Shown: positions 1 through 59,141, counted from the first letter of the stretch. The stretch: 64,000 nucleotides of DNA from Bilabrum cf. latius (GCA_965178125.1 OZ237755.1:868001-932000); one strand, 5' to 3'. Numbers and translations are program-made. The notes: a model not told the origin generated them from the sequence alone.

Positions 1-450
1 ACTTGGCGCTGTTCTAAATCGTGCAGGTTGACCAACCTGCGTCAAGCGAGCAGCGCCTGCAATAATTTCAAGATTTGGTGACAAAAAAGCGAGCATCAAC
101 CCGATGACACATCCGCCAACGACCGCTCCAGCTTCGCAGCGGCCCCAGGATGCTCTTGCTTCCGTAGGTCGAGCCGTACTTGGAACGGACTTGTGGCATA
201 ACTTTTAAAGACTTATCGCACAAATAAAAACTCGTGGAGAGCCTCTAGGCGTAATCTTGCTTGCTGTGGTGATTTGGTGTGTGGTGCAGTCATCATCATC
301 AAATGCGTGATGCCCGCTCGGCCCGACAGCGCATGTTTGCACCATTCAAGCGCAAGCGCGACGTAGTGTCGAGGACATTTAATTTCAGTTTGCTGTCGCT
401 TCAGAGAGAGGGGCGTTGCAGCAATGTTGCCGACGAATGAGACCGGTAAA

Positions 451-4747: not shown

Positions 4748-5049
4748 GTATTGCGACTTGCGTTTCGCAATACACTGCCTCGTGGACACTCACGCTTGAT
4801 AGATCCCATTCGACTCGTGCACTGAGCTCAGCTCGAGACCAAAGGAAACGTACAACGCCCAACCAAGCGCAAGCCCAGCCACGATCTCTAGCACAGACAC
4901 TCGCCAACCCAAGCGGCCTGAAATCATTGGTTATCACAGGAACAGGAAATATTTTAGTGTCGATAATGTTTAGATTAGCTATGCCTAGCGATCATCAGAT
5001 TCTCGGGATATCGGTGATTTCAACACCTAACAATGCTGCAAATCCGGAT

Positions 5050-15800: not shown

Positions 15801-16490
15801 GCCTCGCAGCGATGCATGCACCTCGAGCAACCGACTGCCACACGCAGTGTTGGAACGCAGCAGTCGTGCATCGTGGAGCCAGTATCTATCCCAATACAAT
15901 GGCGCTGATGTGGGCGCCGTCTGGCCGCCCTTCGAGCAGCGAGGTCCAGATTTCGGATGGTCGGGCCGCTCAGGAAGATGAGTGGAAATCGGTTTCGGGC
16001 TCGGCCGTCGGGGCAAATTTCCGGTGCATTGCCAGCGTCGGAGCTCATCGGAGTACGGCGCCTAGGTTACTTCAGGTCTCAATCTAGCGATCCGGCGGGG
16101 CGGCGGGGCGGGTTGGCGTGGTCGAGCAGAGCGATTCGCGAAGACGACGGAAATGTTTGACGCACTGCCCGCCCAGCGCCTGCCGTTGCCGCTAGGTGTG
16201 TTGCAATGTTTGAGTGTGTGCGCACCTTTCTACCAGAGGAATTTTCGAGTTAGGTCCTCGTTCGCGAGCAAGGTCCCCGGACGTCCGATTTCGGCTTGCT
16301 GCCGACGGAATTCTCGAGGTTTTTCGCCCCGGCATGCGATTTCCCAGCGGTGAGCGTGAAGCCGACTGGCATATAAAGTTGCGGATGCGTGATATCAAAT
16401 GATTGGTTGGGGTCCGATGCCGGGTCCGGCGGGCGTGCGGGGCGCTAGGTCCAATTGCCAAAGTAGGGTGGGAGCGTGTCTATATATAAT
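12810..16490 (-). repeat. Three tandem ~1.2-kb non-autonomous Helitron units (12810-14026, 14027-15268, 15269-16490)
   Basis: Recurrent junction atatccttaa|ctagacatg. Unit lengths 1217, 1242 and 1222 bp; the third lacks its first 8 nt where it joins the helicase. Confidence 0.93.
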
Positions 16491-22400: not shown

Positions 22401-25400
22401 CGTCAGTGCGTCGTGGACTGCTCCATACGGGCCGCAGCAAGGATCGGTAATAATCTGATGAGTAATGTGTTTTACGCTGTAGTACCCCACGATCTGCTCG
22501 ACGGGAAGATCTCGGCTGTCGTACTGGCCTTGCACCAACCACGACTGCGACCCATACTCTCTGATGAGCTTCTGGGAGGCCCAATCGTCGCTCTGTGTCA
22601 CCGTGCAGAAGTACCTGGGGCGATCAAACTCGTTCACGAAAGCGTCGCCTGTGTTCATCGTCTTCCTGGCTTGCGCCTGGGAACCGGGCAGGGACACGTT
22701 CAGGTCTGGTTCCTTCCTGAGCGCGGCGGCTCGGTGCCTTATCACCTGCTCCGCAGTCGGACGACGTTGCATGTGCTGTGCGGAGAAACCCAGTCCGTAC
22801 GCCCCAGACTGCAGCTGAGTCTGCTGCGCCAAACACACTACCCGGAGGAACGTGTCGTACACCCCAGCAATGAACGAATTGCTTGCTCGATGGGATCGGC
22901 TCGGCTGCAACAGCAGCGTCTTCAGTCACGCCTTGAACCCATTGATGATCTGGGGCTTCCCAGCAACAAATTGGTACATGAGACGGCCGACTTGCTCTGG
23001 CGTGGCTGTCTCTGCTGCTGCGGTCGATTTGGACGACACCGGCCCCTTTGCCTTAGACGACATGCTTGGCGTGAATTCCAGCGGAACATCGCTGCAAACC
23101 TCATGCATCCCGGCTGCTATAAACGATGGCAGGTTCTGCAGGAAAATGAGCTTGGTGTCGCGGATATCCATGTGCGTGCCGGGGTCCACTTCCAAGTACG
23201 ACGGGATCGTGATGTGCACGTCCGTGATGGCTTCAGACGGCAAGCCTGCCGGCACGTGATGAGGGGCCGCTGCGGCCCTATGGCTGCCTTGCGACAGATT
23301 GCCCCCAGCAGCGTTAGCCCGTAGACGCAGTCTCGCCTGCTCCTTGGCATAGCGCATGGCTGCCTCGCCATTGACAGCCACTGTGTTCGGCATCATGTCA
23401 GGAGGAATCGCGGCTGCCTGCGTAAAGTGCGTGGCGTGCACGCCCTGGTGCTGCAGCTCAGGGATGGAACCAAGTCTCATTGCAGGCATCGCAGCAGGCA
23501 GCTGTTCGTCAAATTGTCTGTGTTGCGCGTGCGGCCTAGACTCTAATATTGCATGTCCAGGATCCTGCATGTCAGCTCCAGCCCCTGATGCTGCAGGCCT
23601 CGCTGGTACTCCTGGCCACTGTCCGATAGCATACATGCGACGTGGCTATGGTCCCTCGCCGTCACTTTCTTGCCCATCTGTCATGGTCCAAGCATTCGTG
23701 GCACGTGCCGAGGCTGCCGCACTCGAAGAGGACTGCACTTGCAACACAGGATCCACTGGTGCGCCATGCATTGCTGTCAGTGGCGAATGGTCTGCCCGCT
23801 GACTTCCACCAGATTGAATCGCGCCCAAGGTAGCTGATGATAAGCCAAGTCCGGAACGCCGTCTAACATGCAAGGCCTCGGTGGTACGTGAGCGGTGCTG
23901 CCTAGCGTCCTGCGCCAGGATACCATCACCATCACCCTCGCTGTCGCTGTCGCTGTCACTATCATTGCCACTGGCTGCACCTCTAGCTTGAAACGCAACA
24001 GCTGAGGATGCCCCAACACGTTCATGTAGAGCAGGTTTGCCGTCCATATCGCCGTCACTCCCACCGCTCTAGCCTGTACCAAGGGATTGAGCATTTGCTG
24101 CAGCTCCTTTTGTCTGGAGAAGCTATCCACGAACTCCCTCATCATCGAAGCAACTGTCATCACTGTCCATAGCATCGGCCATTGGCTAGGCAACAGCACC
24201 ACGGCTATCCATATCGGCAACCACAGCTGCGACGCGTGACTCGAGATCGGACAGGTGATGCCCAGGCGAGTGATAGTCTGGGTCACCCTCCATCAGTTTC
24301 AACTTGATGTCATGGCAGGCCTGCTACACCACAGTTTTCAAAGCTCCTCGCTAAACCCTACGTTCCCATTCAATGAGTACCGTGGTAAGAACCGCTCGGA
24401 ATGGGAGCGTGCGGTACCCTAGCAAGTACACCAGCGCGAGGATGACTTTGGCCACACGGAGACCGCGGCTCTGCTTGGTGCACAACGCAGAGGTGAGCAG
24501 CGATACGATCTTTCCACCCTAAGCATCGCCCTCGCGCTGGTAGGATTCCAGGCGCTTCAAGATGTCCCTCGAGATACGATGATCGCCATTTGCGCCAAGC
24601 ACCACCCTGTCATTCATCCGAGACTTGTCCACGTTACTGCCACACAGATGAGGAGTCGCATCCGTGGCGAAAGATCGGCTGGCAGAGCCCCTGAGCTTGG
24701 TGTCTGCATTCTTCATGAACCGGCCCGGGGCCATGGTAAGCAGGCACCTCACTTTGCAGCTGGCTAGGCACAGCAGGTCCGTCTCATCCTGGTTTAATCC
24801 GCGGAGCGGCAGCGGGACTGGAGCCTTGTAGCTGATGGCGCGGCCAGAGGGTGCAACAACCTCAGCCATGGCCTTGCTGCACTTTGCCTTCAAGCTGGCC
24901 ACGTCGTCGCAGTTGGCTAGCGTCTCGGCATCTGCGGGCACAGTTCTGCTGAACACATCCATGGCTTCCTTACATTGAACGCTGCTGCAGTATCCCACAA
25001 AGTACTTGCGTGAGTGGAGACGTGTGCCAGCTGGTGGTGGGGACCGGTCAGCTGCACCCGTGTACAGCCCCCTGGTGCGCGATCGAGCTCTGGCGGCACT
25101 GCCTCTACGGCGTCGCTTGCGAGCAGGGGCGGCATCGCTGCCCTGCGCTGCTTCTTCCTGAGCATCTGACCGCCGACACCCAGCGATCCACGTCTTCCAT
25201 CCTGGCTTCGCGTCGCGCACGAACACATCGTTCTGCCGCTTGCCTTCGCCACGCGCCATGATCGGAGCCGAATCCAGCATGAGATGCCTGGGCATGGAGC
25301 CGTCCGTATCCTTGTTGTGCTCGTGCATGGTTTCCCTGAACGTCTCGCCATAGAAGTGGTACGCCCCAAACCACTCCACATCGAGCTGCTCTCGAACTTC

Positions 25401-26557
25401 ACCCTCACGGTAATCAGCGGCTGGCAAAGGCTGGAAGCAGAACTCAGGGACCTCCTTGCTGAGAGCGGTGATCACAGATACCAGCCGCCCGCACGCCACA
25501 CAGTGCCCCAGGTGCTGTGAAGCCATGCTGACTGCTTGCCATCCTCTGGCCATGGGGCTATGCAACTTGCCTGCATCCGAGCGGACGGGCACGTGCACGT
25601 ACCCCTTCGATTCATTGGCAACCACTTCCTTCACTTGCATCGCGGGAAGAGCCATGAACTTGGCTGTGAGATCCAGCAGCATCTCCACCCAACCTGATTT
25701 CAGCCTCGTCAACGTCAGCCCTTCAATGCCGTCCCTGGCTATTGCGTTCGGAAGCAAGTGCCCGCAGCTCCGCAGCCTGTCCAACCAGCCCTTGTTGCGA
25801 TGATACCGATCATCATACGGCCGCCTATGCTTTGGAAGCCCCTCACCGAGTTCCTGGAAGGGGTACACAAACTTGGCCATGAGCTATAGCGCTCTGCTGT
25901 CCCACGACTCAGTATCGAAGAAGATCCCATCAAGTACCTCGGCAATGGTGCTTTCGCTTGCTTTGCTGATTCTGACGCCGCCTAACTAACCTAAACCATA
26001 CTATCTACTCAGAGCAGTTTTTACCAATGTATCTATCCTAGATCCTTTGATCTGCTTTGTCTCTGGGTTGAATGCACCCTACGACAAACATGCCTACAGA
26101 TGCTCCGCCTCAAAGCAGCTGCAGTCTTCGTGTCCCATTGTGCCTTCCGGGTGCTCATCCAATTTATCTGTGATAACATAATGGCCATGGATACATTCGA
26201 GGACATAATCACTTTAGGGTCTCATCGATACGTGTGCATCATCCAACACCTGGATGCTACTCTTGAACAGTTCATGTTCTTACCTATATCATATTCAGCA
26301 CTCTCATACGAAGCTTTCGCATCCTGGAGAGCCCCTGGTAACTCCACAGCCATATCAAATGGATCGACCTGCAGCTTCTGTTCGAGTTCACAGCTGAGCA
26401 CTTGAGCATTGCTGGCATCCTACGGATAGTTATGCCCGTCTTGCTATCCGCTTTGATCCTGGTAGCCGCTTGCATGTTGGCGCTCTCGCAGACCTGCAAC
26501 GTGTCTCTGTTGTCGAACTCTTTTATCTGTTCGAGCTCGCTTACGTCCTCGTGGCAT
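16491..26557 (-). CDS. Helitron RepHel transposase (HUH Rep + Pif1 helicase), ~3300 codons, 3'-truncated, one in-frame TGA at 22926, probable intron 26168-26283
   Basis: Eleven ORF-track pieces from 16395 to 25880 share one frame and are joined by TAG (one TGA). Rep motifs YFCTVTQSDDW, EFQVRGHAHDH, YINRYITK. Pif1 motifs GPAGSGKS, GVTIHRCF, LLIIDE, GDSQQLP, LHRNMRAREDPDFASLLNSVRQG, LAPGCPVVVIAN. Putative exon 1 MPRGRKRAR... with a GTAAG..CAG intron. Confidence 0.88.
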
Positions 26558-32714: not shown

Positions 32715-35096
32715 GCGAGACCAGCGCTCTCACTTAGGGGAATTCAGAAGAAGATAAAGGAAATAATTCAAAAAATCCTGGCTCAGCAGAAGACTCCGAC
32801 CCTACAGCGTGGTGAGCCGAGCCTGCGGACACTGGATGGGCGGTGCATTGTGACGGACATCATGGAACACGCGGACGAATTGTTGGACTAGGTTGCATCT
32901 GCAGGCCCCTCGAGACGATGGCACGAGGTGCAGATGGAAGCAGCCGGCTATTCTGTGGACAATGACGGTGATGCGGGAGCGGGGATGACTGGGGATGCGC
33001 CGTCAGCATTGGGTGCGGACGGGATGTGGTAGGCTTGGGCACGATGCCTGGCAAAGCGGGACAAGATTGACTTGCGGTCATTCCCACCGGGCTAGGCACC
33101 ATCATCTGCTTTGGACGTCTGGTATGGAACGTTGTCACACTGGGAGCGTAGGGGCGAACTGCAGCAGGGGGAGCGATGGGCAGCACGCTAGCCGTGTACG
33201 CTGTCACCTCGTGGAGCATGGCAGGCACATTTGGCTCGTTGTCGACGCTGCGGGGCGCGGGGCGCAGTGGAGCCCGATTGTGTAGCGGGCCGGGGGTTTG
33301 TTGGACTGGCACGACATGGGCTTCGGGCGGAGGCAGTCTTGAAGGTGTTGGGGGCGCAGCCGGTACGGGCTGACCCGAAGGACTTGCCGGCGGACGAGGA
33401 GGATGTAGTCCCGTTCGTGGAAGCAGCAGCGAGTGCAGGCAAGATTCGACCGGTGGAGGGCGCCGCGGTCTAGGTGACGCCTATGTTCGTTGCCAAGAGG
33501 ACCGCAATCGAGGTACAGCAGCGGGAGGGTCAGACACCACGCTTGGTGCAGCGGGAGGACACGACTGGCAAGCAGCGCCTAGTCACGGATATGAAGCGCT
33601 CGGGCGCGAACGAGGCATTTCTTGACTTGCGTTTTCGGTATGGTGATTTTGCTCGGCATTTAGCAGAGCGAGTGGGACGTGACAGGCACGAATGGGGGGC
33701 AGCCTTCGATTTCAAGGCGGCATATCATAGTATAGCGCTGGCACCGGGGCTGCAGCGATGGATGGCAGTTCGCGGAGTGGGTGGCAGCATGTTTTAGTTT
33801 GTGGTCTTGTCGTTTGGTTGCAGAATGGGCTGTTTTGTCGCATCAGTAGTGTTGGCAGAGTGTCTAGCGGGGGTGCGACTGCGCACCGCACATTGGGCTT
33901 TTGGGTACATTGATGATGGCTTTCTGTCAGCACGTACGGAGTCCCGCACTATGTAGTTGTTGTGGTGTGCCGTGCTTGTAGCGCGGGGGATTGGCATGAG
34001 GATATAGCCTAGCAAACTTACCTTTCCAACATAGGTGATTGAGTTCCTTGGGCTAAAGATTACCCTGGGAGCCCACTTGAAGGTGACACTGCGCTCGGAT
34101 CGATGGCCACGGATCCACGCAGTGCTGAGGACCGTTGAGCGAATGCGAGCTTTCAACATGCTAGCAACGAGTGCGCTGGCGGTCAAGGCTGTGGAGAAAC
34201 TGGCAGGACAGTTGGGCGCGGCTGCGGCAGTAATCCCCCACGCTTCGCAGCACGTGTTTGCGATATACTAGGCGGCTGCAAAGGCTCGCAAAGGTGGTAG
34301 GCACATCTGGACGGCAGAGTTCAACGAGGAATTTGAGTGGTGGCTGACATGTAGGGACCGCGGTATCTTGACAGCGGCAGCAGCTGCACCGATATACCCG
34401 TTGCCGGAGGGGAGAGCATCCGTGTTTTGTGCTGACGCGTCAGCCCATGGACTGGGTGCAATGTGGCGCCGAGGCAATGGTGATTCTGGCTTGATGAAAA
34501 TGGGTTTCCACGAGGACATGCAGTTACTATCCAGTACGGCACGCGAACTAGCATCACTACGAGCTTTTTTGTCAGGACCAGGCTAGTTGGCGAGGAGCCA
34601 GACTTGCCCAGAGGCGCTCTTCGTGCTGTCAGACAATCAAGCCCTGCCAAATTTGCTGCGGAAGGGCGGCTCGATGAAGGCTGGGTAGCGAGATGAGCTG
34701 CGAGAGATTGGAAGGCTGGCTGAGAACTTGGGATACGTTATCTTCCCCGTGTGGTAGAGGCGAAGTACACCGATCATGGTGGCATGCGATAGATTGAGCA
34801 GGGTGGAGGACGGTGCTGGTCAACTGGTGTAGACGGCGGGGCAGCGCGTGGGCAAAACGGGGTTTGTCTCGGCGGCAAGGGCGACATCTGACTCAACTTT
34901 TCATGCACCATTTCATCTTCGCAGGACCATTTGGGGAGCTGATCCCAGTGACTGGACGAGCAGGCTCAAGTGCTGCGGCACAACGGCGAGCAGCGGTGGC
35001 GGCGACTAGGACCCTGATGCTGTAGGAGAGTCAGCAGCTCGGCAAGGGAGCTCTGGACGCGCGCAGGCGGAATCTGACCATGCAGGCGGAACTTGA
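32715..35096 (+). CDS. Reverse transcriptase + RNase H of DIRS/Ngaro-type element (first ATG 32862)
   Basis: Single frame with ~15 TAG, ending in TGA. RT motifs KQRLVTDM, FDFKAAYHSI, F(Q)FVVLSFG, GYIDDGF, PT(Q)VIEFLG. RNase H motifs CADASAHGLG, SSTARELASL, LSDNQA, CDRLSR. Confidence 0.88.
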
Positions 35097-36141: not shown

Positions 36142-36528
36142 CTGGGCCAGTGGGTGTTCCTTGCGGCGTTCGATGGGCGAACAGCCAAAAGGGGGGCCCA
36201 GTGTAGATCCCGTGGCCAGTGGCAGGTAGTCCCCATAGCGGCTTGAAAGGTCCGTGCCGCCTGCCCAGTGCCCGGGGAAGCACCAGCCAAAACCAAAGCG
36301 CCACGGAAGGAGGAGATTACGAGGAGCAGGTACTAGGTACGAGAGTGGAAGCTGAGGGCAGGACAAAGCGGCCAGCCGGGCCTAGGCGGCACGGAGACGG
36401 CCGTGCTAGCGACAGACGAGTGGGCGACGGTGGGTAGCGGCGCACGAGTGGCGCGTGGCGGGAGAGGGAGAGTGCTGGGGGAGCGAAGCATTGAGCGGTT
36501 GATCGACAGATCCACATTACCAACCATC

Positions 36529-38294
36529 ACACTGTTCGTTGCAACGCATAGCTTCAGTAGACCGGATGCATCCGGTCCAATCTTCACAAAACAAAATTCG
36601 GTGATATCTTACGTCCCTTGCATTGCTGCTACGGACGCAGAGCTCGCAAAAGCGCACGAAGAAATCGAGAGGTTGAAACACTAGCTGGCCTCGGCCCGGC
36701 AAACTGCCGCTGAAGCCGCTGGCCTGCTCCGAGCTAGACAGTAGAAAGATAAGGATGATCCGCAGGTTGAGCCTGCAGAGAACCCAGCAGATAGCCAGGT
36801 ACCAGCGCAGCCTGTAAAGCCTAGCAAAGAAGGATCCGAAGCAACGGCCGAGCGGAGCCCGTCCATTGAGTCGCCCCAGGAGGCCCAGAGAGCCCAAGAA
36901 ACCTAGGCTGCACTAACAAAGGATAGTACGCAAATGCTTTTACCTGCCACATCCAGCGCAGTGCCGCTCGCCTTGATGGATCCGCGGCTACCTCCGGTGG
37001 GAGGGCCCCCCCAGCCGGGCATCTGCTGGAAGGGCTTCGATTTCGGTTTCATCAAGGAGTGGACGGGCCCGTAGCACACCAAGCACATGTGCAACACTCG
37101 GTCGCAGGGAGATGCACGCCTCACGTGCTACTCGGCAAGGCATGCTCACCTCTCGCAGCCCGCGGCTCCCCACGCCATGTGCTCTCTAGACGGCGGCGGA
37201 TGGCTCGACTTCACGAAGATGGCCCCGGCGTAGTGCCCCGCCAGCAGACCCGGCTGGAAATGTGATGGGTAGCCCGTGTACCACCGGTTCACCAGAGGCT
37301 TCACCAGCAGCCGATGCGAGCCAACGCCAGAGAACAACCCCGTGCAGCACCTGTCCCAGGACCACCTCAGGGACATGTTCAAGGCCTTTCAGCCGCTGGG
37401 AGCGACAGAAGGCGAGGCGCCCCCGAGCGATGCATGGGGCTTGCCCTCTGGCCCCCTGGCTTTGTCTCCGGACAGTGCAGAGCTTGAGAGCCCAACCGCT
37501 GCTTCTGGCAATGGAAATGGCCCGCGCATCGTGCTTGCAGTCACCAGGGAGCGTGGGGAACACGCGAACCTGTTCCATGCCACGACGGATTTCATCAATG
37601 CGTTCATCGCACTGCATGGCATGGGTGTCATGGACGGGGAGCAGGGCAGGATTGCGGAACAGCGAGAGGCAGTCACCGGCAAGGTGGGCGTGCTGCTCCT
37701 CGACGAGCAAGCGGAGGGCCCCTTCGACGTAGTGTGGGAGAGGGTATTCGCGCCTCGGTGGGGGGTCAGGAGACCCTCAGTGTTCAAGCCGGCGGGGGAG
37801 GCGGGTGGCCTGCCGCAGTCCGGGGTGGGCCAGCACTAGAAAGTGCCGGAAGCGGGAAAGCCAATGCGCGGCCCTTAGTTGTCTGCCGACCGTGTCTTGT
37901 TTGTAGCGCCGGGTTATGCCTCCGCGTTCTTTCACCAGAACAAGGGGGATTCTCTGTGCCGCGAGCCGGTGAGGATGTACAGGGCATACAGGTCATTCTT
38001 CCTGGCCGGGCTGGGCGTGCAGGAGCCCAGGCCTGATCCCAGTGCGCCTCTGAAGGTGCTATTCGTGTCCCGCAGGCCGTACAACAAGTTTGTGGAGCAT
38101 TCGTTCGTGGGTCGGCAGATATCTAATGAGGATGAGGTGCTAGCCAAGCTGGGTCACGATGGCGGAAGGATGGTGTTCGGAACGAGCGGGGCGGTCGTGG
38201 AGAGAGTGGATTTCGTGCATTTTACGTACGAGCAGCAGGTGCAAAAGGTGGCTGAGACGGACATGCTGGTGGGCATGCACGGTGCAGCTCTGAC
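36529..38294 (+). CDS. GT61/EOGT-like glycosyltransferase, main piece
   Basis: One frame broken only by TAG. Motifs EHANLFHATTDFINAF, LKVLFVSRR, RQISNEDEV, YEQQVQKVAETDMLVGMHGAALT. Confidence 0.85.
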
Positions 38295-39949
38295 CAGGGC
38301 TGCGCGTTATTAAGGGCTCCTTAATAACGTGGATTTTCACCCGCGGAGGCCTTAATAACGGAAGTCACTTTGTCGCCTCAACACCCCATAACAATGGGCA
38401 AAAATACTAAATATAGTTTAAATAATTAATATTTTATTCGTATGGGCAGATTTATTATCGATGTTGGTATTATTGAGCCAGTATGAGCGTGCTACAATTC
38501 AATCCTTCAACGTCCAACCCACGCAGGTCGGCATTAGGCCAAGAAAAGGCAGACAACGCCGCCAAAGTCTAGCACGCATAGCATGGTCGAATAATGCCTA
38601 CTCAGAATAGCCTGCTGGTATTCGTAAATTTCACCAGGCTAAGAGTGCAGCTGAGCTACTACTGAAGCTAGGTGCAGGGCTCCTTTTGGGTGCAAGACTG
38701 TGTGGCCCGACCGGACATTACTCTAATGTACTCCACATTGTTACTGGTATTGATACAATATCCGGTGCGAAGGAGCTTGAGGCGCGATTAATGCGTCTGC
38801 TGGTGCAGCACGACGATCCGGGATCTGCACACCCTTGTACCTGGGCTCCCCAACACCTTCTCAGAGAGCCCGAAGCAAAGGCTATGGCGTCTTGCTGGCG
38901 GACTCAGCGTGCTAGAACTATACAGGCGTAGGAAACGAAGGGAAAGCACGCCATATCCGCGATACTGAAGATGAATTTGGATGCATTATCGTTGGCTGTT
39001 CGGGCTCCTCGGGTCTTGGGCAAGGCATGGCTCGAGAAGAACAAGTGGTGGATGCTGCCAAGCACCGCCGTTGGCTTTGCGTTCATCACTGCTGAGGATG
39101 GGCTGGTGCTGATGGATTCGTACGAAGCTTAGGCATACCACAAGCGTGAGCTTCTCCGACCGAAGCAGACGCAATAGCATCTGTTGGGTAGGCAGGCCGC
39201 AATGACGCCCTTAACAAGGATCTCGCACCAGGAATAACCATCGGACAGGCTGCAGATGACGGTAAATGTTTGTTCAACTCGCTTGTGCAGCTGCTTCCTA
39301 AGGGCCCGACCACCTCATAGCCTTGTAGGTTGCGCAAGGCCATCGTTGACGAGGTCGAAAAGGGCATGGGCGACTTCGTCAGGGGAGGCTCGACAGTTCT
39401 TGAGAAGATGATGCAGACACCTGACGGCACGGAAAAGATGCTGATCTTGTAGTAGTACGTGAACATGCGCAAGGACGGTGTGAGGGGTGGTCAAATCGAA
39501 GAAATGGCTGCAGCGAGGGCGCTATCGTGGTCTGTACCCTTGGACCTGATGCGTACTTCTACTCGGTGCATGTCCCCTCCTCATCCCGTCAAGTGGTCGC
39601 CATACACTTGATGGGCTCCCACTACAGCCCGTGCCATGCAAGCCATGTGGTTCTGCGAGCCTTGGTCGTCGAGCACGAGTGAAGGGTGTCATGGCTTCTT
39701 GTGGCTATCCGGCAAGCGTCACAGCCTGGATAACTACCAGAATGTATTGCTTTGTAGTATACTAAGATGTTGTTTATAGTATGTGGCATATATATCATGC
39801 ATAACTCCCAATGTAAGGACTAAATGAAGAAGATCCAATGACCCGATCTTAATAACGTGGATTATTTTGAAAATCCTGTTAATCACCGGCTTAATCACGG
39901 ATCTTGAGTCCCGGTATTAAGGTTTTGGCCTTAATAACGCACAGCCCTG
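38295..39949. mobile_element. Non-autonomous hAT-type DNA transposon (1655 bp)
   Basis: 21-bp TIRs CAGGGCTGYGCGTTATTAAGG with one mismatch (38295-38315 / 39929-39949). 8-bp TSD GCTCTGAC (38287-38294, 39950-39957). Subterminal CTTAATAACG repeats. Confidence 0.92.
39240..39635 (+). pseudogene. OTU-like cysteine protease remnant inside the hAT element
   Basis: AADDGKCLFNSL, LRKAIVDEV, YVNMRKDGVRGGQIEEMAAARAL, then after a frameshift AIHLMGSHYSP. Confidence 0.7.
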
Positions 39950-39957
39950 GCTCTGAC

Positions 39958-40222
39958 TCACTCTTTGCTGCTGCCTCCATGGGGCGGTGTGCTCGAGTTC
40001 TGGCCCACGCAGGAGGATATGTGGCGGTGCTTCGAGCACATGACCGAGCTGGCCTCTGGCAACTACGCAAGATGGGCCAACTCGGACCCCCACAAATTTC
40101 GGAGCGACTCCAAGGGTGACTATACGGAAGTGGACGTAGTGGGAATGGTGGGGGAGGCCTCGAGGCTGGCCGAAAGGGTCGTAAGATCCAGGCAGACCTT
40201 CGCAGACCTTGCTGGTGACTGA
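39958..40222 (+). CDS. GT61/EOGT-like glycosyltransferase, 3' piece
   Basis: Removing the element and one TSD restores GMHGAALT-HSLLLPPWGGVLEFWP; ends in TGA. Confidence 0.85.
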
Positions 40223-40645
40223 TAGGCTAGCCTATGTCTATCACTATGATAGCTGTGATATGAATCCATAGGCTAAAGCATCCGGGTGTTGCAGAGGTGT
40301 ATCGTCTAGCCCTAGATACCTAGAAGTTTGTGGACGATCCGGGATCCGGATGTCGCAAAAATTCCTGCTTGATCCATGAATGCCAAAAATTCTTGCCCCA
40401 GGTCCCGCGGACCAACTGGAACTCACCCCGAGCGACTGTTTCTTAACCAGCCCACCTGAATGCGGTATCACTGCGAATAAACACACCACTTTCCCAATCC
40501 GGATGCACACGACTGGCTGGCGATGGCGGCTGGCCCCGCAGGCTGTGTCGACCTAGGGGGACGTGCTTGGTTGAGTTGAACTCGAAAGTACGTATGAAAC
40601 CATTGGCTGCAACGGAGGTCCGGGATCCACCAGTCTAGCATGCAG

Positions 40646-43600
40646 TCACTCCCCACCACCACCACCGGCGGGATCGGCCGCCAGCAACATGTCGAGCACG
40701 CTCTGCTCCTCGGCTGGCCCACGTCTCCCAGTCTGTGGCCCCAACTGCCCGTCGGCCTTGCCGCTTGCTTTCTCCACCGAGCCTGCTGCATCGTCGACCA
40801 CTTCCTCCCCATGCTCATCTTCACTACCAGTGTCATGCTCGAAAGCAGGGTCCACGACCACACCCACGGGCAGCTGCTGATCCAGGCCGCTGATCGCATC
40901 GCTCACCGCGAACACGTGCAGCGGCAGCCACCACGCGCCGCTCGACAGCCGGCGAGCATACCTCGGCATGCTCTCGGGAATGAACACACGCAGGTCGTGC
41001 GTGGCAGAGGCCCCTGATCCGATCCTCTTGAGCGCCAGCAGCTCCTCATCAGGCTACTCGTCATCGTCACCATCGTCGCCATCCACGCTGTCGCCGTCCT
41101 TGCGGTCTTCATCGAGACCTGCACCACCGACATGCCCGGCAGCGGTCCAGCGGTCCAACCCCGAACGATACCCAGGCGCCGACCCACCGCTGGTTGCTGC
41201 TGCTGCTGCTGCTGCTGCGTTGGCTTCGCCGTCCTCTAGCCCTCCAGGGCATGCCCCGTCAGGCGCGCACCCAGCCATCAGCCACCACCCAGACTCCTTC
41301 TACCTCGGCCACCGAGGCGCGAACACGCGCCTGCTGGCAGACCTGCCGTTCTGCAGCTGCCATCTCACGCGGATCACGAGCTCCTCGCCAGGGGCAGCGC
41401 GCAGGATCAGCTGCGACCTGCGAGTTGGAACGTACACACTGCTCTTGCCTGCCAGCAGGTGCCTGTCACGGCCCTGCAGCTCGCCAGTGCTGACAACGCG
41501 GTCCCCTGACAGCTGGCTCAGGCCCCGCAGTGCCGACGATTTCGCCGCCCCTGTCCCTCCGGTCTTGTGCAGTGGCAGCACCTCGCAGCCCAGGGACACG
41601 CGGGGAAGGCCGCGGATGGCCTGCTCCAGCGCCCCCTTGCCCCTGGCATCCAGGCCTCTCACGGTCCTCAGTGCCTTGGAAATCGATGCCTGTCTCTCGG
41701 CCGCAAGCTCCCCCAGTGAGGGCTGCGCGAGGTCCTTGGTCACCTGCTTTGCACCATCCAGCGCAGGAGAATGCGGCAGGGGGGAAGCGATTCCCGGAGT
41801 CTGCCCTCTCTTAGAACCCATGCCGAAGGGTAGACCCAGCGCACGCGCGGCTCGTTCCTGCGTGGACGAGAGGCAGGCCAGGGCCAGTTGCCTTTGGACC
41901 TAGGAGGAGGACCCGTGCGGCAGCTGGGTGCAGTCTGCCGCCCCTGACGATGGCATCCTGGCCTGCACCAGTGCCTGGCTCAACTCTGCCAGAGCTAGGC
42001 AAGCGGACAGCAGGCCCTTGTCGGCCGACATGTCCATCAGCGCATTGAGCACTCTCGCGCATTGGTCCAGCACGGTCTTGGTGTCGTTTGCGTAGTCCGA
42101 GATGGGCGGCGGCAGCCTGCACATGTGCGACTGCAGCAGCAAGAAGGCCTTCGTGTGCGCGTCTCCGAAGTCCCTCTCGTCAGTGTCCACCTTCCATGGC
42201 AGGCGCCGGGCCAGCTCTTCGTTCAGCTGGTCCTCGTTGTGCCTGACGGGCAGCTCGGCAAACTCGCTCGCGTCAGCGAGGAGCTGCGCCATCCAAGGGA
42301 AGGACCGGAGCTGCTCGTCATCGGCCTCGTCCAGCCTGCGGTTGAACGTGCCCACCGTCTCGTGCCGAAGATAGTAGAACGATGCGATGAGGCCGAGAGT
42401 GGAAGGGGCAACGGCCTCCTGCCGCACAAGCCGCTACCGCTCCATCCGTGCGGCGCGCCGCGCCTCTCGCACGGCCCACGCCCTCGAGGCAGCCGTTGGT
42501 CGAAGCATGTCCATCTTCGTAGGCACTCTGGAGGCGACCCCCTTGGTACCCTTGCCCTTTCCCTTGCCTTCCCCTGACTTTTCCCTCTCGCGACGCGCGG
42601 CACGCTCCTCTTTACGAGCAGCCGCCACCTACTGCATGAGCTCAGCCTTGGTGGCGCGCGCCCCGAGCACCTGCCTCGCCCTCGCCAACTCGTCCAGCGA
42701 CACATCGTCTGGCTCCCGGTTCGAACGGCCGCTCCCACGCGCCTGCGCCCCCACGAGAGCAGGGCTGCCCTCGGGCTGCGCACCTGCCACAGCGGAGTAC
42801 TCCTCGTCCGCTTCGTCATCGGAAGAGTCCTCCTCGTCCACAGCATCGGCGGCTTCCTCCTCTGTGACCATGCCGAACGCGTCTGCCGCAGCATCCCCAA
42901 GCAGGACGCAGCCGTCCTCCTCGAGGTCCTCCAGCACGCCATCGACCAGCCGCCGCAAGAAATCAGCCACGCCCCTCGGGCTCGCATCCCGCAGTCCATA
43001 GTACGCAGGGTTCTGCACGAGCCTGCGGAAGAAGTACGTCCATGTCAGGAAGTCAACGGCGTCTGACCTAGAGTGGATCGTGCCCGAAGCCACTTCCGCG
43101 GCGAGGTGGTCGTGCAGAGACTCCCGCAGGTGGCTCTCAACAGGGAAGGGCGCGTACAGGAACTTGCGGTAGAAGTCCTTCTTGGGCTGGTGCACCAGCA
43201 CCACGGCCACTGCGCTGTCGTCAAACTGCGGCCTTCCCGCCCTGCCGATCATCTGCAGCACGTCGGTGATGGGGAAGTCCTGGTATCGCCCCGACTTGCC
43301 GTCGAAGAACTCCGTGCCTTTGACCACCACGAGGTGGGCCGGCAGGTTGACCCCCCACGCCAACGTTGCCGTGCACACCAGCACAAGGATCTTCTGCTGC
43401 GCGAAGAGACTCTCGACCAGGTTCCTGTCCCTTTCGTTGAGACCCGCGTGGTGCAGCCCCACACCGAAACGGATCGTGTGCGCCAGGGCGGGGTCCTTGC
43501 ACCGCGCCGCTGCCTCCTCGGCCTCGGCGTCGCTCATGCGGAGGAAAGGGGAGGTGGGCACGCCGGTGCCCATGGCGACTCCGGACGCCTCCATGGACTC

Positions 43601-46600
43601 CTGATCGCCTGCCGCGAGCGCGATCAGCTCCAGCGCGGTCAGGCGCGTCTGCCTCCTGGACGACACAAACACGAGGGCAGGCTTCCCGGGGCTGTGCGCC
43701 AGGATCGCCTGGTAGGTGGGCTTGTTCATCGTGGCCATTCTCGGGCAGTAGTGTCGCCCGGGGAACCCCTCAACGTATACTGTGCAAGGGACGGGCCGGA
43801 CAGAGGGCGAGAAGTTGAAGAGCCCGGCGCGCGTGACTCCGAGCCAGTCTGCCAGGTCACCAGCGTTCGCCAGCGCAGTTGACAGGCCCACGAGCCTCAC
43901 GGGAGACCTCGTCTTGCTCGCGATGTACCGCATGCGACTCACGATCACCTCTAGCACAGGCCCGCGGTCCTCCCCCAGCAAGTGGATCTCGTCAATGATC
44001 ACCAGACCAACCCTCCTCACGTACTCCCGCTTTCGCCATGACCTCGAGATCCCGTCCCATTTCTCAGGCGTGGTGACAAGGATGTCCGCTTCTCGCAGGG
44101 CCCGGGCATTGGGCGTGTGGTCGCCCGTAAGCTCCACCACCTTTTTTCCAAGCCCGGGGTGTCCCGCATCTCCTTGCAAGCGCTTCCTCCAGTCTTTGAT
44201 CCGCTCGCTCACCAGAGCTTTCAGAGGAGCGACATAGACCGCCTTGGCTCCTGGACGCTCGGAGAAGAGCCGAAGCAGGGCCAGCTCAGCGCACACGGTC
44301 TTGCCACTGCCAGTCGGGGCGCCCAGCAGCACGTTGTGGTCCGTGCACCGCAGCACGTGGTAGCACTGCGTCTAGATCGCGTTGAAGTGCTGAAAGCGTG
44401 GATACAGCGCCTCGTGCTTGGCCGAGCCCAGCACGGACTTCGGCAGTGGAAGCAGCGGAAGCAGCGGGGTTTGCACCGGCTTGGACGTGGGGACGGAGAG
44501 CCCCTCGAGATCCACCTGCGCCAGCGAAGCTCCGCCAAGCCACCTATCGCTCAAGCAGCGCGCCCACAGCTGGGAGGGGACCGGCTCCGGCAGCGCCACT
44601 GTACACCCCACCACGATGGGCTCGCCGGGCTCCGGAGTTTCTTCCCCTGGTGCTGCCCGCCGCCTGCCCCCTCGCCTCCCCTTGCCCATGCTTGCGAGCG
44701 CTTGTTCCCTGGTGATGGTCACCACCTCGTGGTGGTACATGCGTTCCCTGTGCCCCCCATCCTCAACCCACACGTGGAAGCTCTGCGCCTGCCCGTGCTG
44801 CCGCACGTCCCACTCGAACTCGGGCCACAGCTTCACCTGCACGCGGTGGATCAGGTGCGTCACAGGCTACACCTCGATCTCCAGAGATACCCAGGGCAGC
44901 TTCCTGGCGCACTGAATGGCGAGGCGCCCGTTCTCCTTGCCAGCTAGCAGCCTGCCGGCATCAGCTGCGGTGAGCTCCGTCACCAGCCGGTCCAGCGAGA
45001 CGTTGCGCTCGTCTGCCGCGCGCGCTGCGCTGGCTGGTAGCGGCTTGGGCACAAACTGCCACAACGGAGACGACTCCCACCAGATGCGGCGGTCGATCGT
45101 CTGGCACATCCGCAGGAGCATGGCAGCTCGTACCGGCCACATGCGCCGGAGCGCGATTTCCAGCATCCCACGGGCCAGCCGTCCCGCGGACTGCGCCACG
45201 AACGCCGTGTCAGACACGAGAGTGAACGACATGACCCTTGCCCTGGATATGTATGCCTGCAGCAGCACATTGGTCTTTCCCTCCTTGGATAGAAGGTCGG
45301 CCTTCACGTTCACTGCGCACGACCCGAGAAGCCTCCGGATCTCCTTGTGCTCCTCCTCGCGCACCTTGAGCTGGGCGAACTCCTGCGCGCAGCTCAGCAG
45401 GTGCAGCAGCTCCTCCTCGGTCGAAGCACCCCCTTTGCCCTTGGCATCGCCCTCCATGCCGGCGCGGAACAGCTCCATCGTCTGGTGGTGAATGTAAAAA
45501 TGGCTTGCGACGCGACCCAGGTCGGTTGACTTGAGCACGAAATCACCGCGAGCAGCAGCCATGGCACCCGCAGCCGTGGCACCAACAGAGGAGGATCGAG
45601 CAGCGCCACCAATCGCAGCCAGCGAGCCAGCGCCGTCACCAGCCGCAGCCGCCGCTGCGAGCACCCCGCTGCCTTCGTTGTAGTTAATCATGCGACACTC
45701 AGTGAGCCGACGTGCAGCCGTTTGGATCGCGAGGCGCCTCTTGTCCACCAGCAGCGGGTCTGCGTCCATCTCGTTCGGGCGTACGCCGTAGGACCTAGGA
45801 GACCGTAGCATCCTGACGTACCAGTACGTGTATGACAGCCACTCCACGGCTTCTCGGACGGATGTCACGGTGCCAGCCACGACTTCGGCGTTGAGGTGAT
45901 CGGGCAGCGCCTTCTGAAACGCGCTCTCGATCGGCAGCTGCTCGGTGAGCATGCGGAGGTACTGCGGCAGCTCCTGCTCCGAGGTGATGATGCATGCATT
46001 GCCCTCCGTGTCGAACTGCGGGCGGCCCGCTCTGCCGAAGATCTGCAGCACGTCGAGCATGGACAGGGACACGAAGGCGCCCTTGTCCGCGCTGTACACC
46101 TAGGTGCCTTTGATGATCACTGTGTTGGCCGGAAGGTTGACACCCCACGCCAGCGTTGCCGTACACACGAGCACCTTGATGAGCCCAGCGGAGAACAGTT
46201 TCTCGGTCAGGGTTCTGTCGCTCCGCAGCATGCCCGCGTGGTGCACCCCCAGCCCGCTGTCGAGGAGCGTCTTGAGAGCCTAGTGCCTGCTGCGCTGCAC
46301 CTGCCGGCGAAGGCCAGACATGTCTCCCGATTTGGCGGCATCACTGGCACTGATCATCATCGCAGCAACATCGTCGTACTCCCCCGGGGGCGGCCACACC
46401 TCCTCCTCTTCTTCCTCTTCCTCCCCACCGTTTCCACCGCGTCCACGCCCCCGGCCCCCACCGCGTCCACCGCCCCGCTTCGGTCTGCCCCGGGAGGCCC
46501 TCTCCACGGGGGGGGCACCGCCCCTGCCGGCCCCCCGCCCGTGCCCCTGGCCCATCTCAAAGACGCCGCCACCAGCAGCGCCCGGGCCCCTCCCAGTGGC

Positions 46601-49189
46601 CTCTGCGCCAAGGGCGCCGGCAGCCACGTCGGCTTGCACTCCTCCTGCCACGGAGCCCAGCCACTGCCTGAATTCGTCCGCCGTGTCAGTGGTGTCCTTG
46701 CGCGAGTGCACAAACACCATGCACTGCTTGCCTCTTCGGATTGCCTCCATGGCCTTCTCGAAGGCGATCTTGTTCATGGCCTCCTTGCGGTCTCGCACTC
46801 GCCGCGCCGTCACACCCACGAACGTCTACTGAAGCGGAACTGGCCTGTGCGCGGCGCCGAAGTGGTGCAGACCGGTGTCAGGGTTCACCCTGAGGAACAG
46901 TGCCACGTCCATGTAGTTGGGCAGCGTGGCGCTCAGCCCCACGAGCCTGATGGCAGTCTGCGTGAGCTCCACCAGACGCAGCGTCCTTGCCACGATCGAC
47001 TCGATCACGGCGCCTCGCCCGTCCGCCAGCAGGTGCACCTCGTCGATGATCAAGAGGCCCACTTGCTGCGCCAGCGAACCTTCGCTGCCCTTCCTCGTGA
47101 TCACGTCCCACTTCTCGGGCGTCGTGACGATCACCTGCGTCTCAGATATCTCCCTGCGGGTCAGCTGCATGTCGCCAGTCAGCTCGCGGACCCTGAGTCC
47201 CATCGGAGCCAGCCTGCTCGAGAACTTGCTGGTCACCTCCGCTGCCAGCGCCTTCATCGGGGCCACGTAGATGATCTTGATCTCGTCTTTCTGCAGCACC
47301 CCGCCCAGGAAGTGCTGCGACAGCTCGCGGCACACTGCCAGCATGGCCACGTTGGTCTTGCCAGCACCCGTGGGGGCGCACACGAGCATGTTCTCGTTGC
47401 TTCCGAACGCACAGGGGAACACAGCGCTCTGCAGCGCGTTCAGACTGCTGATCCCGCGGAACGCCGGCCTGCAGAACTCGGGGAGTGATGCGACGCTCAC
47501 CAGCGGAGGGTCCCTGGCCTTGTCCCTCTTCTGCGCGGGCACCATCACCTCCCTGATGTTCTTCTTCTTCGTCTCCACGGTCCCCGGGGGGAGGTCTATG
47601 CCCTTCTCCCGCGCACCAAGAGCGAACCCCTGCCCGCCCATGCCGCTCCCCGCAGCCACACCGTTGGCCCCCAGACGGAGAGGCCCCTCCCCCTCCCACT
47701 CCGACGGGTCCACGCCTCCCGCAAGAGCCCTGGCAGCCCCCTCCGACAGGCCCAAGCTGTGCTCCACCGCAGCCTCCTCCGCGCTCAGCATGCCTGAAGA
47801 CCCCATGTTGGGGTTGATCATGATGTTCTGCCCCTCCTCCCCCTTGGAGAGAGCCTTGGCCGCGCTCTTCTGGTGCCTCGCCTCCCTCCTCTGCACCCTC
47901 CTGAGCGCCTTCTGCCGCTGCTGCTCCTCCCAGGACACGACTGAAACGCCCACGCCTCCACGCGCCGCATAGCTGCGGGTGTCTTTCTGCGCAGCAGCAG
48001 CAGCAGCAGCAGCTGCCGACAGCCCGCCTCGGGCCCGCCCCATGCGAAGGGCCTCTGCTGCAGTGCCGCGCTCTGCCTCCCGTCGAGCCACCTGCCTCAC
48101 CTGGCTCTCCTCCAACCCGCCGATGGAGTCGGCGTGCTGCACGGCCGCTTCAATCACGTCCATCCCGCGCCCCTCGGCACCTACCACCTCGAAGAGCCTT
48201 GTCTGAAGCGCTGCCGCCCTGGCCTCTTTGCCCTGGCCCTTGGTGGACTTGCGGGCCAGGCGGACGGCTCCGATCACGGACACGGCAACTTCGACCGGAG
48301 ACAGCATCTGCTGTTCTCGGGGCAGAGAAGCCACGTGCTCGGCGCACAGGGCAAGGAGCCAGTGCGCGCTGCCTGCCGGGTATGCGCTGCCCGAGTGCGA
48401 GGCAGACTCGCCCCCAGCACCTGCACCAGCACCAGCACCTGCACCTGCAGCCGGCCCGGGCCCTGAGGCGCCAGGGGCCGAAGAGCCGGGCAGCTAGGGC
48501 GGTTTCGTTGATATTGCTCCTTGCTCGTTCAGAGGAGTCACCCGCACCGCCCTGCTCTTGAAGCGGCCGCCGAAGAGGCGCGCACGCGATGCATCAGGGT
48601 GTGCGGCCCCGCTACCGCGAGAGGCTGCGGCGGCCAGTCGCTCGGGGGCTGCCGCCTTGAGCCAGTCTACGAGAATGATACAGTGTTTTGCAAGTGCAGC
48701 GGCATCCTTGTCCGAAACTTGCAGAGAGAAGCGCAAGCCAGCACGTTGGACCTTCTCTGTGCTAGCATCGCTGCCAGCTCCAGACCCTCCAGCTTCGCTC
48801 GCAACCGCACAGAATGCGTCAAATGCGAACTCATTAGCCTCGTCAGCATCGACGATCCCACCATCTGTAGATATGGCTTGCCTAGCTGTGCGTTGCAGCG
48901 ACGCGTACGCCACTGCTGCTGAATCTCCTTGTCCAGCGGAACCATCCAAAGCGAACCATTCCTTTGAGATCGCCTCGTTCTCTGGGCAGTCCGATGAACC
49001 CTAAGTTAGCCTTCGTTCGGCCTTCTCGATCCAGTTAGTTCGACGAAGTTGGCGAATGATATCCTACCGAAGAAGCCTGCGCTGCCGGATCGGCTGCATG
49101 CCAGAGGAACTTTGTGAGTCATCCGAGGAGCGAATATATGAAGATACCCGCGGTAAGTCCAGCATTCGAACGGTTGTGTCGCTGTCCAT
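40646..49189 (-). CDS. ASCC3: Ski2-like dual-cassette helicase ASCC3/Slh1 (2847 aa, intronless, 13 TAG=Gln)
   Basis: N-terminal [10 protein letters not shown]. Two helicase cassettes ([12 protein letters not shown] and [12 protein letters not shown]), each followed by a Sec63 region; [26 protein letters not shown]. Single frame from ATG 49189 to TGA 40646. Confidence 0.95.
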
Positions 49190-49811
49190 GGCCCAAGTGT
49201 GGAGAACGAGGATCGTTCCGGTCCGGCAAGACTTTGCTTCAAACCGGAACTTCTTGAACCGGAACGCCCACGGAGGTGAAATTTGAGTGGAGATATGTGC
49301 TTTGAAACACAGTGGCGTAAAATATGGTCAATATAACAACAACAGGTAAGTGCGCTACGTGTCTCTTCCCTGCTAATCCCCAAAACCTGCGATGCAAGGC
49401 ATCAAAGTAAAGAGGATGTAAACCGGTTGTAGAAACGACCTTGGGGCGCCCATGGTCCATTGAAAGACCGCGGGGTCGTGCCCGAGGCGGTAGGGTGATC
49501 GGTTCCACATCCAGTCGGGGCCACGAATGGACCCGACCGGCAGCACTTATCTTCGCGGCACAACGACGCCCAGGCTGTGGGGAACAGCAGCCTTTCTTCC
49601 GTGTCACGGCCGCGGCCATCATCAAACAACAAGCAACCAAATCCAACACCAAGAATGGTAAAGGTTGTGGCAAAAGGGCAAGCAAACCGGCCACACAACC
49701 AGAACACGAGCACGTAGAGCGCTGATACCTTACCTCTGCTAGTCGAAAGAGCTCAACTGTTGATCGGTGCACGCAGCGCCCCGGCACCAGGTGATTACAC
49801 GGGGGAGGCCC

Positions 49812-51980: not shown

Positions 51981-52219
51981 TCACCAGCAACCCGAGCAAC
52001 CCGACAGCCGGAGTCGATCTTGTTGCTCATGCAAGCTGGAGACGAACCATTGTTTCCTCAAAATGTGTGCCCTAAGTTGTTGCGCATTGTGGTGGATCGG
52101 ATCGTCGTCCGGTTTGAAAAGCAGTTGCGAGCACTTCCGCGAAGCAAGCATACGCGATAACCGCACTAGCATACAGCATGACCGGCATCCGTAGTAGGCA
52201 AAGCAATGCCAACGCGAAA

Positions 52220-58703: not shown

Positions 58704-59141
58704 TCACTTGCCGACTCGCAAGCCGAGAGATTTCGCAGATGCCATCACAGTCCTGACCACGCTTCGCAGCGGAATTGCCCGCATCGTCGGATCCCACTAC
58801 TACTTTGACTTTGCAATTTCGTACACTGCTTTGATACTGACGTCCCCAACGACGTCGTGCCCAGGGCGCTGCGACCCCTTCGTGATCCCTGTCACTCGCT
58901 TCAGGTACCAGGACGAAGGCGGCGGGAGCACGTCGAAATCGAATGTCCTGTCATCGAATGCCCTAAGTTTTACTCGCATCACTGCACTTTCCTTCAGCTC
59001 CGTGGTGCGCGCGTTGAACTGCTTACAAAACTCCATCATGTTGACGCCGAGAGGGCCAAGCGCCTAGCCAATCGCAGGCGATGGCTTTGCTACCCCAGCA
59101 TTGACAAGAAGCCTTGCAGTTCCCTTGACTACCTGTGCCAT
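58704..59141 (-). CDS. MRPL11: Mitochondrial ribosomal protein uL11m
   Basis: AKPSPAIG(TAG=Q)ALGPLGVNMMEFCKQFNART...YEIAKSK(Q)(Q)WDP...MASAKSLGLRV; ends in TGA. Confidence 0.95.

Follow-up and report, generated by a model that had tools for sequence, protein, structure and literature searches.

In the 64-kb stretch of DNA analysed here, called the window throughout, UAG is very probably read as glutamine in the cytoplasmic translation of the nuclear genome to which the stretch belongs. The source is the nuclear genome of a GC-rich protist (∼60% GC), and the gene at the centre of the analysis is a minus-strand gene for an ASCC3/SLH1-type helicase at 40646..49189. We favour the glutamine reading because conserved columns of the ASCC3 alignments, an invariant residue in a reverse transcriptase (RT) motif, identical sequence in four studies and the retention of TAG in spliced RNA-derived contigs all point to it. 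The same reassignment had been put forward in an initial annotation of the window, and the scores for glutamine at the TAG sites of ASCC3 and of the RT, given below, bear it out.

Under translation table 11 the minus-strand ASCC3 frame is broken at 46826, 46100, 44867 and 44372, among other places. With TAG taken as glutamine it becomes a single stop-to-stop frame, 40646..49327, of 2893 codons and 13 in-frame TAGs. Counted from the Met, the gene has 91 CAG, 17 CAA, 13 TAG and no TAA codons, and its sole TGA is the terminal one; the GC content at third codon positions (GC3) is 0.77, and the gene has no intron. The protein contains two stretches each of the Pfam domains DEAD, Helicase_C, wHTH (winged-helix) and Sec63. 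The best solved chain in a PDB search was human ASCC3 (8alz_B, 1590.6 bits), with yeast SLH1 at 1347 and BRR2 at ∼1298; judged by these scores, the window helicase is of the ASCC3/SLH1 type, nearer to ASCC3/SLH1 than to BRR2. Residues 2762-2871 of the 2893-residue protein, which lie past the last TAG (41054..41056), align to the C-terminus of the Cafeteria protein, and translation therefore continues beyond that TAG. An imperfect inverted match to the Ala-Gly repeat of 63185-63610 is present in an Ala/Gly insert of ASCC3 at 48414-48478.

Chance does not explain the ASCC3 frame. Of the 3055 stop trinucleotides that the two strands of the window contain, 910 are TAG, and by arithmetic from the window counts the probability that all 13 in-frame ASCC3 stops would be TAG under random decay is ∼1.5e-7, and that of a 2893-codon frame without TAA or TGA is ∼1e-21. 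The initial annotation had stated that multi-kb open reading frames (ORFs) become continuous when TAG encodes glutamine. Indeed, the number of ORFs of at least 300 aa in the window rises from 21 (longest 762 aa) by default to 40 (longest 2893 aa) with TAG as sense. Making TAA a sense codon gives 23 such ORFs, the longest still of 762 aa, and making TGA a sense codon gives 70, none longer than 1066 aa; the number is this large because TGA is the commonest stop trinucleotide in GC-rich DNA.

The TAG columns were read in two ASCC3 alignments, the one of 24 diverse homologues and the other of the 59 homologues that a 5-mer overlap redundancy filter left from 249 full-length ASCC3/BRR2 proteins (MAFFT FFT-NS-2). 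The moth protein P0002, top match of the homologue search, owed its score to internal repeats; it aligns in pieces, with 27-73% identity, and was left out of all alignments. The coding sequence (CDS) and its TAG codons are as follows.

40646..49189, minus strand: CDS of the ASCC3/SLH1-type tandem Ski2-like helicase; Met at 49187-49189, TGA end at 40646-40648
46826..46828, minus strand: TAG, residue 834 of the protein (P0001), RPVPLQ[q]TF; Gln in 47/59 and 19/24 homologues
46100..46102, minus strand: TAG, residue 1076, IIKGT[q]VY; Gln in 52/59 and 18/24 homologues
44867..44869, minus strand: TAG, residue 1487, EV[q]PVT; Gln in 53/59 and 19/24 homologues
44372..44374, minus strand: TAG, residue 1652, FNAI[q]TQ, in the helicase Q-motif region of cassette 2; Gln in 59/59 and 24/24 homologues
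41054..41056, minus strand: last in-frame TAG, residue 2758
49064, 49001, 48494, 46280, 42629, 42434, 41900 and 41300 (first coordinates), minus strand: the other eight TAG codons

The four columns at residues 834, 1076, 1487 and 1652 are those for which the initial annotation had claimed glutamine in homologues, and glutamine is indeed what most or all of the 59 proteins carry there. The nine other sites fall, in the 59-homologue alignment, in variable or inserted columns. Scoring was limited to columns at least 70% filled among the 59 homologues, which admits seven of the 13 sites. Over these seven the summed log-odds are +17.2 bits for Q, with R next at -9.7 and K at -10.6. As a control, the same statistic placed the standard residue first for 10/10 codons, if only weakly for CAA (Q -1.2).

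Two further genes carry TAGs at positions that can be compared with homologues. One encodes the RT of a non-LTR (long terminal repeat) element, and the other the mitochondrial ribosomal protein uL11m.

5018..6439, plus strand: non-LTR RT ORF with seven in-frame TAGs (Pfam RVT_1, E 7.2e-17)
5435-5437, plus strand: TAG in GVL[q]GSPLSP (motif at 5426-5455), RT residue 140
58704..59141, minus strand: uL11m (MRPL11) CDS, without intron (Pfam Ribosomal_L11_N and L11), TGA end
59064-59066, minus strand: first uL11m TAG, in PSPAIG[q]ALG
58800-58802 and 58797-58799, minus strand: second and third uL11m TAGs

A search of the RT ORF against 1.84 billion representatives gave 2703 matches at E up to 0.001, of which the best 150 were aligned; the alignment comprised 152 rows after the removal of four same-family fragments (P0399, P0425, P0447 and P0498). 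At residue 140, where the initial annotation had likewise read the TAG of GVL[q]GSPLSP as glutamine, all 149 filled rows of the 152 have Q. Summed over the six scorable RT TAG sites, the log-odds are +10.8 for Q and -3.3 for R. In uL11m, the second TAG corresponds to Gln in three plant chains in the PDB alignments, and the alignments to solved chains include both late TAGs and continue to residue 143-145 of 145, immediately ahead of the TGA. Every TAG that the initial annotation had quoted, whether in ASCC3, MRPL11, the non-LTR RT or a DIRS-like RT, was found in the sequence at its coordinates.

One of the same-family fragments, the 80-aa protein P0399, occurs on three public contigs; it covers residues 60-139 of the window RT (window 5195-5434) and is 98% identical to it. 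At the window TAG site 113 it has an ordinarily encoded Q, and its last residue is the one directly before TAG site 140. By its sequence, P0399 would be the expected product of a standard-code gene caller on another copy of the element, which implies a probable TAG/CAR difference between near-identical copies. Public metagenome and Logan protein sets contain P0399 and also the more distant RT fragments P0447, P0425 and P0498; environmental data therefore include relatives of the window genome, though only as ORFs cut at TAG. Searches of the RT protein against genome contigs and viral contigs gave 88 and 15 pattern matches, respectively, with 0 confirmed in either case, and neither the non-LTR nor the DIRS-like RT ORF had a match in the PDB.

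We compared the window over 40600-60599 with the contigs of runs X1, X5, X6 and X7, which represent four studies and four organism labels; runs X9-X14, with small shares only, were left out. No run listed as holding the ASCC3 stretch is recorded as RNA. X1 is DNA-like, with a flat depth of 16-18 and two contigs (40600-48406 and 48464-60599) that have 0 differences from the window. In X5 and X6 the depth varies gene by gene (∼34, 180 and 550 in X5), contigs end near gene borders, and contig joints have CT..AC ends on the plus strand, that is, GT..AG introns of minus-strand genes; these joints are not in X1. The GT..AG joints and the gene-wise depth show that X5 and X6 hold spliced RNA. The introns identified from the joints are the following.

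54773-55012, minus strand: GT..AG intron, contig joint in X5 and/or X6
55112-55385, minus strand: the same
56852-56936, minus strand: the same
57021-57106, minus strand: the same
58162-58265, minus strand: the same
49385-49731, minus strand: the same

The initial annotation had described the style of the window as GC-rich and intron-poor. With six GT..AG introns in 40.6-60.6 kb, the term 'intron-poor' can hold only in a relative sense.

All four runs cover the region with 0 differences at TAG sites, and the variant rows come solely from short, low-identity X7 pieces of other sequences. X5 record 13, from which introns have been removed, covers 58266-59087 with 0 differences, and mature RNA therefore contains the three uL11m TAGs. 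The four conserved ASCC3 TAG sites are covered by X6 record 16 and by X5 records 9 and 10, which show neither a joint nor a difference from the window there. The data thus lend no support to editing, splicing-out or sequencing error as an explanation for the TAGs. These were the findings that the initial annotation had named beforehand as speaking against it (TAGs edited, spliced out or errors of CAG); what is found instead is that the contigs of four studies, spliced RNA-derived ones among them, keep the TAGs.

X5 record 13 as a whole (55556-59087) has one end within the uL11m CDS; it spans the intron at 58162-58265, enters a downstream minus-strand gene with a LisH-like N-terminus and crosses two more introns, and it represents either overlapping transcripts merged by the assembler or one shared transcript. 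The stretch 40646-49327 is identical letter for letter in runs under four coded organism labels from four studies (X1-X8); in X7, which is a much larger data set, its depth is low. In some of these runs the source organism may have been a flagellate present through co-culture or contamination.

For stop codon usage, 16 coding-like frames were tabulated, those of 13 host genes and of three transposon families, with a GT61 glycosyltransferase gene in two pieces. None of them has an in-frame TAA or TGA. All 15 of the ORF ends examined are TGA and none is TAA, and UGA is the working stop codon. An apparent TAA end at 38311 was rejected, as it sits in the inverted repeat of a 1655-bp element inserted in GT61. 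In a context scan of every stop trinucleotide, flanks of 50 codons that were open and coding-like in both directions were found for 24/905 TAG, 0/510 TAA and 1/1617 TGA. The 13 host stop-to-stop ORFs contain 298 CAG, 83 CAA and 60 TAG codons, so that TAG makes up 60/441 (∼14%) of their Gln-type codons. The base after an in-frame TAG (T19, G34, C35, A18) resembles that after CAG, and there is therefore no special read-through context. That three transposon families also use TAG speaks for a code already established and not for a recent leak.

A change of UAG together with UAA would show itself as in-frame TAA. If TAA stood to TAG in the ratio of CAA to CAG (17:91 in ASCC3, 83:298 in the host ORFs), which is an assumption, 4.5 to 6.7 TAA codons would be expected, against 0 observed (Poisson p ∼0.01 to 0.001). 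The contrast in coding context between TAA (0/510) and TAG (24/905) likewise makes a UAG-only change likelier than one of UAR to glutamine. We therefore consider it probable that UAG alone has changed and that UAA has no sense meaning, although 64 kb from a GC-rich genome make a small sample for this purpose; UAA may be a rare stop.

Several observations weigh against the reading of UAG as glutamine. Of the 13 ASCC3 TAG sites, six are uninformative, as they fall in inserts or in columns less than 70% filled, and three of the seven scored columns are not dominated by Gln, namely 1016 (K, A, R), 2476 (L, A, I) and 2676 (P, R, V). The weakly aligned N-terminal site 88 corresponds to Arg in 18/18 filled rows of the 24-homologue alignment and to mixed residues in that of 59. 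The initial annotation had also cited PSPAIG[q]ALG of MRPL11 as a glutamine position; the TAG is real, but of the five PDB alignments shown, the three with plant uL11m chains have Pro in its column and the two others Gln, so that this part of the claim holds only in part. The RNA argument rests on uL11m and the neighbouring spliced genes: because ASCC3 has no intron, its X5 and X6 contigs are not provably RNA rather than carried-over DNA. Part of the 60 TAGs in host ORFs fall in the 5' leader of stop-to-stop frames and not in CDS. No gene in the window ends in TAA (0/15), so that TAA as a stop lacks a case here. Finally, ARAGORN and Rfam found no tRNA gene in the 64-kb window, and the eRF1 gene likewise lies outside it.

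What these points allow in place of glutamine differs in probability. It is barely conceivable that the TAGs are untranslated, whether as marks of pseudogenes, as assembly or sequencing errors of CAG, or as codons edited or spliced out of the mRNA. Apart from the in-frame stops themselves under the standard code, nothing speaks for this; the frames are interrupted by TAG alone, as in 13/13 cases in ASCC3, the interruptions fall at Gln columns, the contigs of four studies agree letter for letter, the spliced RNA-derived contigs retain the TAGs without joints at TAG sites, and the same TAG pattern recurs in 13 host ORFs and three transposon families. We give equally little credence to UAG as a sense codon for another residue. 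In known nuclear codes UAG does also stand for Leu, Glu, Ser, Lys or Tyr, and the three scored ASCC3 columns without a Gln majority would be compatible with such a meaning, as would P0447, the 70%-identical RT relative, which has K and E at two window TAG sites. However, the summed log-odds favour Q in ASCC3, where R and K are both negative, and over R in the RT, and Gln is invariant at ASCC3 residue 1652 and RT residue 140.

Two further alternatives accept glutamine and concern the extent of the change. That UAA and UAG both encode glutamine, as in NCBI table 6 (ciliates, Dasycladales and hexamitin diplomonads), with TAA too rare to appear in 64 kb of GC-rich genome, is unlikely, although it has several points in its favour: the window has no example of TAA as terminator among 15 gene ends, a GC3 of 0.77 in ASCC3 would depress TAA, and in the available text of PMC11687900 and PMC5304391 UAA and UAG are described as mostly changing meaning together. 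Against it stand the absence of TAA from coding-like context where 4.5 to 6.7 would be expected at the assumed ratio, its absence from the 16 coding-like frames, a small sample, and the near-constant ORF count (23 against 21, longest unchanged at 762 aa) when TAA is made sense. Very unlikely is a dual, context-dependent meaning, in which UAG is sense inside genes and a stop near some 3' ends, as in Condylostoma or karyorelict ciliates. Ambiguous codes of this kind exist (10.1101/2022.04.12.488043, in the part available), and the window ORFs were themselves defined by reading through TAG; yet the ASCC3 and uL11m frames end in TGA with homology running past their last TAGs, all 15 ORF ends are TGA, and the end of GT61 is a TGA followed by a TAG.

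If UAG is read as glutamine, the mechanism would by analogy be that of other UAG=Gln lineages, for which we draw on the available parts of PMC5304391. UAG would be decoded by a tRNA-Gln with anticodon CUA, an anticodon unable to pair with UAA; a single anticodon change in tRNA-Gln(CUG) would have given rise to this tRNA. Glutaminyl-tRNA synthetase would accept this tRNA, and eRF1 would have lost or weakened its recognition of UAG. TAG codons would then have arisen from CAG through C-to-T change, to reach their present share of Gln codons in the host ORFs.

The placement of the organism was addressed with ASCC3 trees of 25 rows (LG+G4) and 31 rows (LG+C20 with posterior mean site frequencies, PMSF). 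The window protein is sister to the Cafeteria group, with support of 98 and 99, respectively, in the Shimodaira-Hasegawa-like approximate likelihood ratio test (SH-aLRT), and in the 31-row tree a 14-row clade that includes the window, the Cafeteria group and the brown algae Scytosiphon and Sphacelaria has support of 100. The window is 51.7-56.9% identical to the 13 other rows of this clade and at most 50.0% identical to full-length rows outside it. A tree that keeps the 13 together without the window was rejected by the approximately unbiased (AU) test (delta lnL, the difference in log-likelihood, 66.9; p 2.3e-5), the group having been defined after the tree was inspected. The best real full-length match is the protein of Cafeteria roenbergensis, with 47% identity over 2157 aa (BLASTP) and 56.9% over trimmed columns. 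These results come from a single gene; the window's end branch is long (0.84), its skewed composition is shared with Cafeteria, the trees contain few named stramenopiles, and most members of the stramenopile-like clade are environmental proteins. The cluster names among the ASCC3 homologues are Vermistella, Heterolobosea sp. BB2, Telonema, Gefionella, Stephanoeca and Leptophrys only.

By its ASCC3 sequence, the organism is thus likely to be a heterotrophic stramenopile near Bicosoecida, in line with the bicosoecid-type stramenopile suspected in the initial annotation. Anaerobes such as Iotanema-like fornicates are not known to have a mitochondrial translation system, and the presence of uL11m therefore argues against a source of that kind. 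No protein more than 66% identical to a TAG-free 580-aa ASCC3 fragment was found among 5.8 billion clustered proteins (matches of 319-1015 aa), so that those protein sets effectively lack the source organism and its near kin. The 13 other clade rows are database proteins, ∼800 to 2800 aa in length, whose frames are free of stops under the code that was applied in their prediction. Since these relatives do not share the 13 TAGs, the change would seem to lie on the window's own branch. An independent origin, which the initial annotation had raised as possible, is thus plausible, the 13 relatives being uninterrupted and the known UAG=Gln lineages being a fornicate and ciliates in the available text of PMC11687900.

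The remaining features of the window are listed here with their TAG content.

202..2124, plus strand: GT47/RXYLT1-like ORF with eight in-frame TAGs, TGA end
16395..26213, minus strand: Helitron-like ORFs (Helitron_like_N, PIF1 helicase) with 24 in-frame TAGs and one in-frame TGA at 22926-22928
32715..35096, plus strand: RT ORF, DIRS-like according to the initial annotation, with 15 in-frame TAGs (RVT_1, E 1.7e-11)
34032-34034, plus strand: TAG in PT[q]VIEFLG (motif at 34026-34052) of that ORF
36247..40222, plus strand: GT61-type glycosyltransferase gene with nine in-frame TAGs in the stop-to-stop frame; true end TGA at 40220-40222, then TAG
49812-51980, minus strand: expressed host ORF, no family name, with two in-frame TAGs and a TGA end; X5/X6 contigs follow the gene borders
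52220-54790, minus strand: bZIP, expressed host ORF with two in-frame TAGs and a TGA end; X5/X6 contigs follow the gene borders

The TGA at 22926-22928 is the only TGA of the window in an open coding-like frame and lies between two same-frame Helitron ORFs of 1095 and 2176 codons; it could mark a decayed copy, a real ORF border or read-through. A tandem satellite of ∼1.23 kb, with at least eight copies of 60-100% identity, occupies both flanks of the Helitron-like element (12800-16430 and 26780-32700), as if the Helitron had inserted into a satellite array.

The element inside the GT61 coding sequence (38295-39949, 1655 bp) has 21-nt terminal inverted repeats (TIRs) with one mismatch and is bordered by an 8-bp target duplication, GCTCTGAC, at 38287-38294 and 39950-39957. 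With the element taken out, the GT61 frame reads HGAALTHSLLLPPWGGVLEF. Either GT61 is no longer functional or its RNA is freed of the element. Metagenome contig L001, the sole match to the transposon inverted-repeat pattern, was dismissed as a chance match, with 49% GC and ordinary ORFs. A 12-nt tandem repeat of ∼25 registers at 63185-63610 encodes a run of ∼130 Ala-Gly residues inside the ORF 61615-63792. No Rfam family, rRNA included, was found in the 64-kb window.

Nuclear genomes seldom change their code. Among systems already described, UAG alone is reassigned to glutamine (the pattern of NCBI table 15) in Iotanema, Protocruzia and two phyllopharyngean lineages, and UAR in many ciliates, Ulvophyceae, Hexamita, Streblomastix and Amoeboaphelidium (McGowan et al. 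2024, PMC11687900, in the text available). Iotanema spirale (Metamonada: Fornicata) reads UAG as glutamine, keeps UAA and UGA as stops and has a T32G change in the GTS motif of eRF1 (Panek et al. 2017, PMC5304391, available in part). The window resembles it in that UAG alone is apparently reassigned, to glutamine, and in the mechanism proposed, a tRNA-Gln(CUA) with a weakened eRF1. However, I. spirale is an anaerobic fornicate with UAA as its primary stop, whereas in the window, with its ∼60% GC, every gene end seen is UGA; the window also differs in encoding uL11m and in the position of its ASCC3 among stramenopiles. The UAG-only ciliates (Protocruzia tuzeti and two phyllopharyngean lineages) share both codon and amino acid with the window, and UAA is not reassigned in them, as far as the available text of PMC11687900 goes. 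In contrast to them, the window groups with Cafeteria and brown algae, in trees without ciliate ASCC3 that exclude a ciliate origin only indirectly, and its 64 kb hold a satellite array and Helitron, RT and TIR elements.

Codes of the table 6 type have UAG=Gln in common with the window, which differs from them in having no in-frame TAA (0/510 in coding context). Code 15 (TAG=Gln) of crAss-like and other gut phages is nominally the same reassignment, there as a late-gene strategy of phages in bacterial hosts (PMC9523058, in the part available); the window, unlike these phages, derives from the nuclear genome of a eukaryote and has spliceosomal introns alongside nuclear housekeeping genes. The nearest named relative by ASCC3 is Cafeteria roenbergensis (Bicosoecida), which has the highest identity, belongs to the sister group in the tree and has a protein that is likewise GC-rich and Ala/Gly-rich. 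Its ASCC3 is an uninterrupted 2075-aa model with Q at three of the four conserved TAG columns. C. roenbergensis reportedly uses the standard code, as in its published annotation.

Searches of the full-text literature, subscription journals and supplements lying outside their coverage, turned up no nuclear code change described in a stramenopile, and the mention of a code change in a 2024 review of stramenopiles is confined to a mitochondrial reference. Changes of this kind are already on record; what would be new is the lineage, together with the GC-rich setting and termination exclusively by UGA. There is perhaps an even chance that this is the first nuclear code change in Stramenopila, an independent UAG-to-Gln reassignment in a GC-rich, free-living bicosoecid relative, with UGA as the sole stop in practice and UAA nearly or wholly unused.

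For this organism itself, standard-code gene callers would shred or mis-splice its genes. The window ASCC3 is in no protein set searched, and the transposon copy is present only as the 80-aa fragment cut at TAG. As DNA and RNA data exist in several public studies, tRNA, eRF1 and stop usage could be checked quickly from an assembly. If the change is indeed an independent UAG-only reassignment of this kind, the capture of UAG would be possible without AT pressure and uncoupled from UAA. A further UAG-only origin, in another supergroup and at ∼60% GC, would bear on why UAG and UAA usually change together, and also on whether reassignment needs AT-driven codon loss.

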